Assembly: GCA_963705425.1 (NCBI GenBank)
Contig: CAVPJO010000006.1
Location: 60,599 to 124,598 of the forward strand
Length of the DNA stretch: 64,000 nucleotides
Direction of reading: 5' to 3'
Source of the DNA: an uncultured Chloroflexia bacterium
GTDB lineage: Bacteria > Chloroflexota > Limnocylindria > Limnocylindrales > CSP1-4
Part shown: positions 1-47,007 of the stretch, piece by piece
How positions within the stretch are numbered: position 1 is the stretch's first letter
How the letters are laid out: the number at the start of each line of letters is the position of its first letter
Position numbers and translations under genes: made by a program
The notes under the pieces: generated by a model
The model's input: only the letters and a program-made list of their open reading frames with translations
The model's database searches: none
What the model was told of the DNA's origin: nothing

Positions 1-279
1 GATGCTCTGTATGTGCACGGTCTGGCCCGTCTTCTCGGCGATCAGCTTCTTGAGGACGTACGGCCGCACGGCGTTGCGCAAGGTCGAGGCGCCGACGATG
101 AGCACGTCGGGCTTCCCCCGCCGCAGCATGTTGGCGAGGCTCACGTCGGTGAGGAGGTTCGACGAGGGAGCCTCCGGGAGGCGACCGCGGTCGATGAGCA
201 CGCGCGTCCCCAGCTCGACGACCAGGAGCGGTCCGAACAGCAGGATGCCGACGAGGATGACCGTACTGGGGCGGATCAT
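1..279 (-). CDS. SGNH/GDSL-fold hydrolase-like protein, paralog B (N-terminal part only; gene continues beyond window start)
   Basis: Minus-strand translation from ATG at 279-277 gives MIRPSTVILVGILLFGPLLVVELGTRVLIDRGRLPEAPSSNLLTDVSLANMLRRGKPDVLIVGAS..., clearly paralogous to the N-terminus of the upstream gene (MIRPTVVLIAAVLLLGPLLVLELGARSLIETGRLPTAPSTS...). Its start overlaps the upstream stop (ATGA). Confidence 0.6.
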   Translation of the reverse strand, partial: MIRPSTVILVGILLFGPLLVVELGTRVLIDRGRLPEAPSSNLLTDVSLANMLRRGKPDVLIVGASTLRNAVRPYVLKKLIAEKTGQTVHIQSI

Positions 280-1319
280 CGATCGACCGCAGTCAGTCCT
301 TCGAGCAGCGCCTCACGAAACTCCGGCGTCTCCCACAGTCGCGAGGTGACGATGCGTGCGCCCTTGCGCGAGAGGTGGCGGTGGTCACGCTGCCAGTCGG
401 GCGCCCAGTCGTCCCCGGCATCGGGCACCGCGATGATGGCCACGTCGGCGGCCTCGGCGAGGTCAGCGTAGCCCGCGGCGAGCTGTGTCTCCCAGTCAGG
501 GTTGCGCTCGACCAGGGCTTCCTGCAGCGGCGGCGAGTAGGGCACGGTCACGACCAGCACCGTCACACCCTGGGCGCGCAGGTCGTCCACCAGGGCCGCG
601 AACTGCGAGACGACCACGGGCGACCCCGTGACCTCGTCGCTCAACCGCTCGACCGTGGGAGAGAGCAGGCGCTCCAGCCGCTTGCGCGTGGCCGGGCGGG
701 CACTGACCCAGCCATTCTCGAAGACCTCTCGATCGCTCCCGCTGATGGTCGTGGGCAGGGGCTCGGTCATGGCTGCGGTCAACCGCTCGGGGTATCCGCG
801 CCAGCGCCACAGGGCGGATCGCTGACCGAGCCGGCAGCTCCACTGCTCGTATCCTTCGAGGTCAGCGCAGCCACTCCACGCCCGCCCCAACTCCGAAGCC
901 GCCAACCAGCCCTCTCGGTCCCAGCGTCCCGTCATGCTCGTGGGCGTCAGGCCGATGATCACCGTATCGGGCAGGAGGTCACGCTCGGCCAGGCCCTTCA
1001 CCAGCACGCGCTGGTCATCGTGGACGAGGCCGCCCAGGGCCAGGTTGTGGACGCGGATGCGCTGGCCGGTCTCGGTCTCGACGAGCTTCTCGAGGACGTC
1101 GGGAGAGAGGGCGTTGTGCATCGACGAGTTGCCCAGGACCAGCACGTCAGGTCGACCCATGCGCTCGAGGTTCGCGATGGAGATGTCCGCCTCGAGGCTC
1201 GTGCTCGGAGCCGTCGGCAGACGACCGGTCTCGATGAGCGAGCGCGCACCCAGCTCGAGGACGAGCAGGGGGCCGAGCAACAGGACGGCGGCGATGAGGA
1301 CGACGGTCGGACGGATCAC
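276..1319 (-). CDS. SGNH/GDSL-fold hydrolase-like protein, paralog A (DltD/AlgX/AlgJ-type partner of MBOAT)
   Basis: 348-aa ORF starting at GTG 1319, 8 nt after the MBOAT stop. N-terminal signal/anchor, LVLGNSSM block near the N-terminus and DHRHLS block near the C-terminus, consistent with SGNH blocks I and V. Gene order matches MBOAT O-acylation cassettes. Confidence 0.6.
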   Translation of the reverse strand: MIRPTVVLIAAVLLLGPLLVLELGARSLIETGRLPTAPSTSLEADISIANLERMGRPDVLVLGNSSMHNALSPDVLEKLVETETGQRIRVHNLALGGLVHDDQRVLVKGLAERDLLPDTVIIGLTPTSMTGRWDREGWLAASELGRAWSGCADLEGYEQWSCRLGQRSALWRWRGYPERLTAAMTEPLPTTISGSDREVFENGWVSARPATRKRLERLLSPTVERLSDEVTGSPVVVSQFAALVDDLRAQGVTVLVVTVPYSPPLQEALVERNPDWETQLAAGYADLAEAADVAIIAVPDAGDDWAPDWQRDHRHLSRKGARIVTSRLWETPEFREALLEGLTAVDR

Positions 1320-1327
1320 GGCTGGAC

Positions 1328-2615
1328 TCAGAACTGCTGGTAGATGAAGGCGGGCGCGGCCGGTGGCAGGAGCATGACCGCGATGGCGAGGGCTACACCA
1401 TAGGCTAGCCAGCGGCGCGCCGACCGGCGCGGCGCCAGCCGGCGCGCCAGTGGCACCCAGCCCGTCCACTGAGCCACGATGAACAGCGTCAGCGTGGCCA
1501 CCAGGGCCAGGCTGGGCATCGTCCCGCCATGGGGCACCAGCATGCGTGCGTAGAAGTGGGCCGCGGACTCCAGATTCGGGGCCACGAAGGGTACGCGCGC
1601 CAGGACCACGAAGGCGAAGGTGACGACCCATGACAGCGCCACCGGCAACACCGGGTGCGAGGGCAGGCGGCGCCACCAGCGGTTGACGGAGAGCCCGATG
1701 CCCTGCAGCAGACCCCACACGGCGAAGCCGCCGCCGGCCCCGTGCCAGACACCCGCCAGGGTCATCGTGACGATGAGGTTGAAGTAGGTGCGCAACCCAC
1801 CCCGGCGTGAGCCGCCCAGCGGGAAGTAGAGGTAGTCGCGTAGCCAGGCCCCCAGCGTGATGTGCCAGCGGCGCCAGAACTCGGCCATCGAGAGCGAGCG
1901 GTAGGGCCAGTCGAAGTTGCGGGGCAGACCGAGGCCAAGCAGCCGGGCTGAGCCACGAGCCATATCGGTGTAGCCGGCGAAGTCGAGGTACAGCTGGAAG
2001 CTCCAGGCCGTGGCGATGGCCAGCAGGGCCACCGACGAGTAGCTGCCGATATCGGCGAAACCGTCGCGCACGACCGGGTGCAGCTGATCGGCCAGCACCT
2101 TCTTGAACAGACCGCTCACGAGGAAGGGCACGGCCATGTCCAGGAGCGCGAGGTCGAAGCGGCGATGGAAGCGCAGCTGCGGCAGGAACTGCTGACCACG
2201 CATGATGGGCCCGGCCAGCACGCGCGGGAAGAAGGCGATGAAGACGGCGAAGTGCAGCGCATCTCGCTCGGGAGCGGCACCGCGATAGACGTCGACGACA
2301 TAGGCGATGAGCGTGAAGGTCACGAAGCTGATGGCCAGCGGCAGGACCAGCCCGACGCCGCCCCACTCGACCGGCTCGCCGCTGACCAGGCTGAGCAGGG
2401 AGGCGCTGCTGCCGAGCGCCACGTCGAGGTACTTGAAGATGCCCAGCACGGCCACGTCGAGCACCACGGCAGTCGATCGTCGCGGCCTTGCCATGAGGGC
2501 CTGCCGCGGCCAGCCCGAGCAGGTAGTTGGCGCCGATGAGCAGCAGGAATCCGGGCACATAGCCGACGTTCCAGCTCGCGTAGAAGAGCATGCTGGCGCC
2601 GAACAGCCACCACAC
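1328..2615 (-). CDS. MBOAT family membrane O-acyltransferase (AlgI/DltB-like), interrupted by one frameshift near 2495
   Basis: N-terminus MWWLFGASMLFYASWNVGYVPGFLLLIGANYLLGLAAAGP lies in one frame. The remainder (VLDVAVLGIFKYL ... FWRRWHITLGAWLRDYLYFPLGG with the conserved MBOAT His) lies in a second frame ending at 1328. Confidence 0.8.
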
Positions 2616-45245: not shown

Positions 45246-45587
45246 ACTCTCGCGCGCTGCGAACGTTCAGCGGTTGCACGCGAAATGTTATGGAAATCTT
45301 CATCTATGCAACGTGCATATACCGCTTGAGTTATGCTGCCCGTCTGCCGCTACTATCCTGGCGCGTGCTGCTCGACAGCACTACTGACCTAGACGCAAGG
45401 TCATGGGTAGGTTGGGTTAGGGTAGCCGGTGAAGCCGGCGTCATAGATGCCCTTGCGACGTGGCAGAAGATCGGGAGCTTGCTCCGGATCAAGCCGGGAC
45501 AGTTAAAGCGACCCCGTTTCGACGGGGTCGCCTCGATTCTGGGGACCTTCGCTGCGAGCCGGCCCCGCATGGACCGCGGTCGCCTAG

Positions 45588-46998
45588 CTAGACCATGCGC
45601 TCGGGGCGGACCAGCTCGTCGAACTCCTCGCCGCTGACGTAGCCGAGCGCGAGGGCGGCCTCCTTGAGCGTCGTGCCTTCGTGGTGGGCCTTCTTGGCCA
45701 CCTCGGCAGCACGGTCGTAGCCGATGCTGGGGTTGAGGGCCGTGACCAGCATGAGCGACTGCGCCACCAGCTCGGCGATGCGTTCGCGGTTGGCCGTCAG
45801 GCCCTCCACGGCGAACTCACGGAAGGTGTCGCAGGCGTCGGCCATCAGGCGCGCCGAGCGGATGACGTTGGCGGCCATGACCGGCTTGTAGACGTTGAGC
45901 TCGAAGTTGCCCTGCGAGCCCGCGAACTTCACGGCAGCGTCGTTGCCGTAGACCTGCGCCGCCACCATGGTCATGGCCTCGGCCTGGGTGGGGTTCACCT
46001 TGCCGGGCATGATCGACGAGCCCGGCTCGTTCTCGGGCAGCGACAGCTCACCCAGGCCGGAGCGTGGGCCGCTGCCCAGCCAGCGCAGGTCGTTGGCGAT
46101 CTTGGTCAGGCTGGCCGCCAGCGTGGCCAGGGCGCCGCTGGCGAAGACGAGCGCGTCATGCGCGGCCAGCGCCGCGAACTTGTTGGGAGCGCTGACGAAG
46201 GGCAGGCCGGTCAGCTCGCGCGATGCGTGCGGCCACGGCCTCGTCGAAGCCCGCCGGAGCGTTGAGCCCGGTGCCCACGGCCGTGCCGCCGATGGCCAGC
46301 TCGTAGAGGCCCGGCAGGGTCGCCTCGATGCGCTCGATGTCGGCATCGAGCTGGGCCACGTAGCCGCTGAACTCCTGGCCCAGCGTCAGCGGCACCGCGT
46401 CCTGAAGGTGCGTGCGGCCGATCTTGACGATGTCCTCGAAGTCGCGCGACGCGCGCCGCCAGCTCGTCGCGCAGCCGCGAGACCGAGGGCAGCAGCGCGC
46501 GCACCAGGACCGTCGCGATGGCGATGTGCATGGCCGTCGGGAAGGTGTCGTTGGACGACTGCGACATGTTGACGTGGTCGTTGGGGTGGACCGGGTCCTT
46601 GCTGCCCAGCACGCCGCCGGCCAGCTCGATGGCGCGGTTGGCGATGACCTCGTTGGCGTTCATGTTCGACTGCGTGCCCGAGCCCGGTCTGCCAGATGTA
46701 GAGCGGGAAGTGCTCGTCGAGCTCCCCGGCCGCGACCTCCTCGGCAGCCTGGATGATGAGCGGGCCGATGCCCTCGGGCAGACGACCGGCCTCGTCGTTG
46801 ACCTGGGCGCAGGCCTGCTTGAGCAGGCCCATGGCGTGGACGATGTCGCTGGGCATGCGCTCGGCGTCCGGGTCGCCGATGGCGAAGTGGTGCAGCGAGC
46901 GCTGCGGTCTGGGCACCCCAGTAGCGGTCGGCCGGCACCTCGACGGCGCCCATCGAATCGGTCTCGGTGCGGGTAGCTTCTCGGGTCGGTTCACTCAT
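45588..46998 (-). pseudogene. fumC: Class II fumarate hydratase (FumC), about 5 frameshifts
   Basis: [28 protein letters not shown] (fumarate-lyase signature) and C-terminus ...[26 protein letters not shown] in one frame. [18 protein letters not shown]...[19 protein letters not shown] and the N-terminal [31 protein letters not shown] in others. Confidence 0.75.
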
Positions 46999-47007
46999 GT
47001 CGCGAAT

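Follow-up and report, generated by a model that had tools for sequence, protein, structure and literature searches.

Can a bacterium keep some twenty conserved genes broken by frameshifts next to long neighbours that are untouched, or is the deposited sequence at fault? This question is raised by a 64,000-nucleotide stretch (referred to here as the window) of a contig from an uncultured Chloroflexia bacterium (CAVPJO010000006.1 of assembly GCA_963705425.1, positions 60,599 to 124,598). The window has a G+C content of 69%, its nearest database proteins carry the name Chloroflexota, and the lineage comes from soil. A preliminary description had counted about 45 shifts in about 20 genes; the same 20 genes all proved to be interrupted, and the count was low by about half, with approximately 83 to 91 events found. 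Our results indicate that these frameshifts are very probably consensus errors of a long-read metagenome assembly and not real gene decay. The preliminary description had also favoured such errors, and the spectrum dominated by +1 shifts, the similar state of sibling contigs, and the intact orthologues in a JGI contig and other relatives all agree with it. In the organism itself, all 20 genes are most probably unbroken.

Number, spectrum and arrangement of the frameshifts

Frame changes were traced in three independent ways. In a Viterbi segmentation by codon usage, the frame changed many times on the same strand from 2.4 to 47 kb and hardly ever beyond, and in tblastn searches with proteins of related lineages, successive parts of one protein fell in differing frames of the window. 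Events were called by frameshift-tolerant protein-to-DNA alignment, i.e. dynamic programming with frameshifts allowed and the relatives' proteins as references, and were classed as INS1 or INS2 (one or two extra bases) and DEL1 or DEL2 (one or two missing bases). This alignment yielded 91 raw events in 20 genes (72 INS1, 11 DEL1, 4 DEL2 and 4 INS2), with about 83 left once eight calls in poorly conserved N-terminal extensions were removed. A further 30 genes for which a reference exists, 20.6 kb in total and among them the FG-GAP gene and the suf/cys cluster, showed no event; thus, 30 of the 50 window genes with a reference are unbroken and about 40% are broken. The genes described as intact at the outset (FG-GAP, GGDEF-EAL, vWA and suf/cys) do lack shifts, as judged by alignment or by their long intact open reading frames (ORFs), and the compensated pair noticed at 7150–7190 corresponds to a deletion at 7149 and an insertion at 7177. 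The truncated, out-of-frame ATPase product of 8374–9171 is present in a public protein collection under the same deposited contig, and several ORFs of the window are matched there exactly; the SufS of the window is likewise identical to a public protein of this contig, which measures 378,047 bp. Therefore, the frameshifts are part of the deposited record.

Single-base insertions account for 79% of the events (72 of 91), the rest being 11 single missing bases and 8 two-base events. In nucleotide alignments with relatives, they appear as one extra base between perfectly conserved flanks, e.g. CATCAC[G]CAACGCC at 7176. The inserted base is mostly unlike both its neighbours, and homopolymers are not involved: an insertion certainly extends a run of at least two bases in 4 of 72 cases (6%), compared with 24–33% for simulated random insertions passed through the same pipeline. 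Homopolymer errors, which had been suggested as a cause, were hence dropped as a hypothesis, run-extending insertions being far rarer than expected at random. The inserted bases match genome composition, as 10 of 30 uniquely placed insertions are A or T (hand tally) and the genome has 31% A+T. A tally of codon positions gave no clear signal, and the scarcity of run-extending insertions confounds the comparison with simulated ones.

Modified motifs had been proposed as another cause. GATC was found within 7 nt of 10 window events (4.1 expected, p = 0.008) and, when the window and its relatives were pooled (150 events), near 20 events (9.7 expected). In the same pool, TCGA lay near 40 events (23.1 expected) and ATCGA near 21 (8.3 expected, p = 8e-5). 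These enrichments are approximately twofold, apply to no more than a quarter or so of the events, and become borderline after correction for the number of k-mers. A motif common to all events was sought both in the window and in the pooled 150, and none was found, only modest enrichments of GATC, TCGA and CGGCAG. The suggested link with GATC is weak and concerns a minority of events. Of the two sites originally placed next to this motif, the first (about 5070) does lie beside an event, and at the second, GATC is located about 14 nt downstream of the event at 5546–5549.

The distribution of the events along the window was as follows.

2492–9088: block of about 20 events
11978 and 12096: 2 events
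25478, 26590 and 28990: 3 single events
31550–32349: block of 7 events
34265, 34551, 37912 and 38735: 4 single events
40099–46905: densest block, about 50 events, one per 136 bp

There were no events within 12.1–25.4 kb or beyond 46905. The non-Poisson character of the pattern, asserted in the preliminary description, was borne out by simulation: the dispersion of events among 1-kb bins was 4.41, whereas 20,000 random placements never gave more than 2.84, 18 bins were empty (at most 12 under random placement), and the longest event-free testable run measured 10,986 bp (simulated maximum 5,825 bp). The contiguous bad blocks span gene and strand boundaries, and each gene inside a block is affected, on both strands. 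A tRNA-Asp gene within the densest block is free of errors, yet it is too short to be informative. Divergence from the references was ruled out as a driver of this distribution, with the FG-GAP gene (68% identity) clean and FumC (93%) affected. The proposal that well-conserved genes were the target had to be abandoned, as the most conserved cluster, suf/cys, is free of events. Since suf/cys and the FG-GAP gene are clean, FumC is broken and whole blocks are affected, the unit of damage is a DNA stretch and not a class of genes.

Bacterial pseudogenes gather many more substitutions than indels, and indels that arise naturally in bacteria are biased towards deletion and are located at repeats. 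Neither tendency was apparent here. After correction of the frames, the proteins of the window were 76–93% identical to those of the JGI contig (L023 in the list of relatives given below), equal to or above the values for intact orthologues of other relatives: 0.93 against 0.87–0.92 for FumC, 0.90 against 0.89–0.90 for KamA, 0.81 against 0.73–0.85 for LtaE, 0.78 against 0.71–0.80 for DUF885, and 0.76 against 0.70–0.75 for CapA. One in-frame stop, in DUF885, was found among the corrected frames checked against L023 (31–48 kb of the window). Thus, that single stop apart, the nonsense mutations and the raised, unconstrained substitution that are hallmarks of pseudogenes did not appear in the corrected genes compared with L023, in agreement with the initial judgement that long-term pseudogene decay was not involved. 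A natural spectrum of indels hitting genes independently was not found either: +1 insertions outside runs make up 79% of events, and they lie in contiguous blocks across genes and strands. Indels that break otherwise conserved ORFs with no excess of substitutions or stops are what an assembly artefact is expected to leave.

A comparison with related assemblies, recommended in the preliminary description, adds to this evidence. Syntenic relatives were collected by means of SufS, the ABC ATPase with two nucleotide-binding domains (two-NBD ATPase) and CapA, and gene order is kept between them and the window across nearly all of 1–48 kb. The nearest usable relatives are about 80–90% identical to the window proteins. 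A same-species reference did not emerge from a scan of genome contigs with the FG-GAP protein (at most 31–51% identity, over partial stretches) or from a scan of metagenome contigs with the corrected LtaE (maximum 71% identity). The relatives, with the handles used here, were these.

L019: ERZ25039600 contig_28347
L020/L024: ERZ25039500 contig_9476
L021: ERZ25039603 contig_74445
L022/L025: ERZ25039600 contig_12101
L023: JGI 3300037489
L026: ERZ25039603 contig_87541
L027: ERZ25039600 contig_12102

The same mode of error was observed in L022/L025, L024/L020 and L027. L022 carries 30 INS1, 3 INS2 and 3 DEL1, L025 about 9–16 events, L024 and L027 six each, and L020 two. These insertion-dominated contigs represent related lineages of the same ENA accession series and bear Flye-style names. 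For example, FumC is divided there into pieces of 66 and 292 aa, SufS ends up only 266 aa long, and DUF885 is split in two or three. The affected genes are partly the same as in the window, DUF885 and the HisA-like gene being broken in four of the five long-read assemblies examined. On the other hand, L023, L021 and L019 have no events and L026 has one; therefore, the genes are normally intact in the lineage. As judged from these contigs, the fault follows the assembly and not the organism.

Affected genes, clean controls and their surroundings

The genes and control segments of the window are given below, with strand where it applies.

1331–2735, minus strand: MBOAT; one to three events, an insertion at about 2492 and a possible compensated pair at 2700/2723 in the N-terminal part (reference L021 MBOAT, 468 aa, 76% identity)
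2781–3825, plus strand: putative ECF S-component membrane protein; one insertion at about 3324–3328 (L020 and L021 concur)
3871–4658, plus strand: EcfT (CbiQ); five single-base insertions, at about 3967, 4068–4076, 4245, 4294 and 4580
4655–6251, plus strand: EcfA1 and EcfA2; one insertion each, at about 5054–5066 and 5546–5549
6663–7680, plus strand: Bmp-family binding protein; six events, insertions at 6864, 6922, 7177, 7352–7361 and 7602 and a deletion at 7149 (three references concur)
7706–9244, plus strand: two-NBD ABC ATPase; three insertions, at 7922, 8373 and 9088, the latter being the last event of the first bad block
9283–11823, plus strand: clean control, two permeases and cytidine deaminase; no events (three or four references each, 88–93% identity)
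11903–12357, plus strand: AHSA1/SRPBCC; two insertions, at about 11978 and 12096
12430–24848: clean control block of 12.4 kb with FG-GAP, DUF1269, JAB, CysM-like, ThiS, ThiF, NifU, SufS, SufC, Rrf2, DUF6941 and DUF4389; no events
25169–29636, minus strand: sparse block; LhgO/DAO insertion at 25478, BI-1 insertion at 26590 and PfkA deletion at 28990, intervening genes clean
31412–32487, plus strand: beta-lactamase family (PF00144); seven events between 31550 and 32349, six insertions and one deletion
33398–34929, minus strand: KamA (lysine 2,3-aminomutase-like); two insertions, at 34265 and 34551
37480–38921, plus strand: two sulfotransferase genes; one insertion each, at 37912 and 38735
39703–41481, minus strand: CapA, which opens the densest block; about 12 events, eight of them single-base insertions (three references)
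41699–42798, plus strand: LtaE/beta-eliminating lyase; 10 events, nine single-base insertions and one two-base insertion
42867–44523, plus strand: DUF885; 17 events, 12 INS1, 3 DEL1 and 2 INS2
44532–45231, plus strand: HisA-like (His_biosynth); six events
45591–46998, minus strand: FumC; four insertions, at 46218, 46444, 46685 and 46905
47008–64000: clean control; no events, with references for 47781–48263 and 60880–63422, the rest being long intact ORFs with complete domain architecture (short-chain dehydrogenase/reductase, solute-binding protein, GGDEF-EAL, vWA, TelA)

Several features of this region are worth recording in their own right. Beside the MBOAT gene, a protein of unknown family (347 aa) is encoded by two paralogous genes in tandem (1–279, cut by the window edge, and 282–1310), of which L021 has a single copy. 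The FG-GAP repeat protein (795 aa, 12409–14796) has no close counterpart in species-representative genomes, most matches there showing 28–31% identity and the highest reaching 51% over short, partial stretches. The syntenic contig L019 encodes a version with 66% identity, and the protein is missing from this position in L020, L021 and L025. Three small, tandem Flp/Fap pilin-like genes, at approximately 35485–35634, 36570–36710 and 37017–37169, have a conserved 131-aa gene between them, and this arrangement is found in all relatives.

A tRNA-Arg(CCG) gene is located at 48684–48759, and its 3' half with the adjoining flank (48715–48777) is repeated with about 90% identity at 50524–50585. The two tRNA-Arg copies flank a gene of the Fic/DOC family (49091–50302, minus strand), and the repeat looks like a scar of an element integrated at the tRNA gene. 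In L024 and L027, tRNA-Arg adjoins an operon of a MarR-like regulator and an ABC-2 transporter; in the window, about 11.7 kb (48800–60400) lie between them. This segment encodes Fic, a solute-binding protein, the GGDEF-EAL protein, vWA, TelA and others, and holds no frameshift events. Its G+C content is lower (0.62–0.66), and it is therefore a candidate genomic island.

Possible origins of the shifts

The names of the contigs and the ENA series of the relatives suggest an assembly of the Nanopore/Flye type. In such an assembly, the polishing step may have kept single spurious bases in kilobase-scale stretches and, more rarely, dropped a base. The bad blocks would then be stretches of poor or mixed read support, arising either from low local depth or from the piled-up reads of a close, co-occurring strain; in the latter case, variable positions could carry the two alleles in succession, or lack both. 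Base modification at GATC or TCGA might make a minor contribution. Soil metagenomes assembled with metaFlye from Nanopore reads were reported to have 56.8% full-length proteins (PMC13087279), and a near-finished Nanopore consensus requires about 40-fold coverage (PMC9262707). A large Danish catalogue of soil long-read assemblies was made with Flye and one round of Medaka, and a coverage-related loss of coding density was reported for it (PMC12313526).

Some of the errors recur between assemblies. The same residue was affected in four cases, against 1.06 expected, a weak excess (p = 0.024). The codons concerned are HisA 57/58 (in three assemblies), DUF885 228–231 (three), FumC 104 (two) and beta-lactamase 281 (two), lying at window coordinates 44704, 43542, 46685 and 32258 with orthologous sites in L022 and L027. 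The sites of several events coincide exactly with positions at which relatives differ, and the two variants stand there in tandem. At FumC residue 104, the codon is ACC in L023 and ACG in L024, and both the window and L022 read ACCG. At DUF885 residue 231, L022 has CGAG and the window GCAG, with GAG or CGG in relatives. At HisA residue 57, there is an insertion in the window and a deletion in L022, and L027 has an insertion at residue 58.

A number of points weigh against the explanation by consensus errors. The classic signature of long-read data, homopolymer indels, is absent, and the concentration of errors in runs that this classic form would display was not found (4 of 72). The partial recurrence of sites and genes across assemblies indicates that the errors are not purely random noise. 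A test of whether events write both alleles, with the relatives as a proxy for polymorphism, gave 9 of 21 cases against 5.9 expected (p = 0.10); the result is suggestive and not significant. Low read depth or a mixture of alleles within the blocks is presumed from the assembled sequence. Finally, the excess of insertions over deletions fits no platform property that we could cite, and a bias of the polisher at low or mixed support is something we infer.

How the consensus could have gone wrong is a question on which we are more cautious. One plausible explanation, to which we would give somewhat less than an even chance, is that the reads of two or more close co-occurring strains were collapsed: where the strains differ, an insertion would result if the consensus kept both alleles, and a deletion if it kept neither. 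Differences between the strains would then lie in the blocks, the strains being identical in the clean segments, and a mosaic of divergent and identical segments would produce kilobase-scale blocks naturally. The explanation fits the recurrence of sites, the events at relative-variable positions (FumC 104, DUF885 231 and HisA 57), the depletion of insertions that copy a neighbour (4 of 72), the share of G/C pairs among events with two alternatives (16 of 28) and the presence of at least three related contigs in sample ERZ25039600. Its difficulties are the lack of significance in the test of both alleles, a proportion of run-extending insertions (6%) lower than the 19% predicted by the model, and the 19 of 72 insertions between codon positions 1 and 2, which would need non-synonymous variants; moreover, that a polisher leaves alleles in tandem is again what we infer. 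Low depth is a tentative alternative, rather less probable, in which the blocks were covered by one to few reads and nearly raw errors outlived polishing. The block lengths (0.8–6.8 kb) are on the scale of reads, and the density of indels within blocks (0.3–0.75%) is of the order of raw error rates in current Nanopore reads. The total error of such reads is 1–2% (PMC13087279), and low coverage is a known driver of truncated genes (PMC9262707, PMC12313526). No departure from random codon position was shown, although that comparison is confounded. Low depth alone, however, predicts neither recurring sites or genes in independent assemblies nor coincidence with variable sites, and it leaves the fivefold excess of insertions over deletions unaccounted for. 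Modified bases at short motifs (GATC, TCGA), which would disturb base calling and cause systematic miscalls beside the motif, are improbable as the principal cause. GATC is enriched near window events, and GATC, TCGA and ATCGA are enriched in the pooled set, and sites recur weakly; but correction for k-mer number leaves borderline values, no more than about a quarter of events are close to the motifs, at 2492 and 44604 it is the inserted base itself that makes the GATC, and clean stretches of 12–17 kb also hold these motifs.

Explanations that place the shifts in the living organism fare worse. Genuine recent frameshifts in a natural population losing the 20 genes, e.g. through relaxed selection or a mutator state, are very unlikely, and with them the very recent indels considered at the outset. 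The shifts are present in the deposited sequence, no same-strain reference contradicts them, and relaxed selection throughout the lineage is one way to read the fact that relatives share some of the affected genes. However, up to 17 of them occur in one 1.7-kb gene with no excess of amino acid divergence and one stop, 79% add one base (+1) that differs from its neighbours, the blocks run across the limits of genes and operons, the damage extends to central genes (FumC and PfkA among them), and the same odd spectrum appears in other lineages only in long-read contigs. It would be more surprising still if the insertions were real in a living soil population of Chloroflexota, as a +1 burst in kilobase-scale segments recurring at some codons in related lineages; were this so, they would have to be tolerated through recoding or be the mark of an undescribed insertion-biased mutational process. 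Programmed recoding, in which ribosomes would skip the extra bases by +1 frameshifting or the transcript would lose them, we consider hardly credible. Nearly all shifts being +1 and the conservation of the downstream sequence would suit it, but the shifts share no motif, the orthologues are unshifted in L023, L021, L019 and L026, compensating deletions are present, and the density reaches one event per 136 bp.

Implications and comparison with known systems

If the shifts are consensus errors, they are biologically of no consequence, and the ECF transporter, the nucleoside uptake system, PfkA, FumC, KamA and so on are very probably intact in the organism. They are, first of all, a warning about data quality, with approximately 40% of the window genes with a reference broken in the public record. 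Automatic annotation would call such genes pseudogenes or fragments, truncated products are already in protein databases, and a metabolic reconstruction from this genome would wrongly lose steps of glycolysis and of the tricarboxylic acid cycle. The signature of the errors, i.e. non-homopolymer single-base insertions, arranged in blocks, partly at strain-variable sites and near GATC or TCGA, may help those who build polishers.

Among known systems, the indels that fragment genes in Nanopore metagenomes, as assessed by the IDEEL test for full-length proteins, likewise split conserved genes with no other damage. They are strongest in complex soil samples at modest coverage, where 56.8% of proteins were full-length (PMC13087279), as compared with 30 of 50 unbroken genes in the window. 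Their textbook cause is error in homopolymer length, mostly deletions (PMC9262707), whereas the window has insertions unlike both neighbours, and unlike those indels, its errors sit in sharply bounded, kilobase-scale blocks. Errors at the variable sites of collapsed strains resemble the window in that several of its events occur at variable positions, with the alleles side by side; the blocks would then match the segments that differ between co-occurring strains, a likeness that is tentative (test of both alleles, p = 0.10). With reductive genomes of the Mycobacterium leprae type, the window shares the interruption of many conserved genes beside intact neighbours. Decay of that type, however, combines frameshifts with stops, deletions and many substitutions, while the window has one stop and no excess divergence, and its spectrum is dominated by insertions, with multiple compensated shifts inside single genes.

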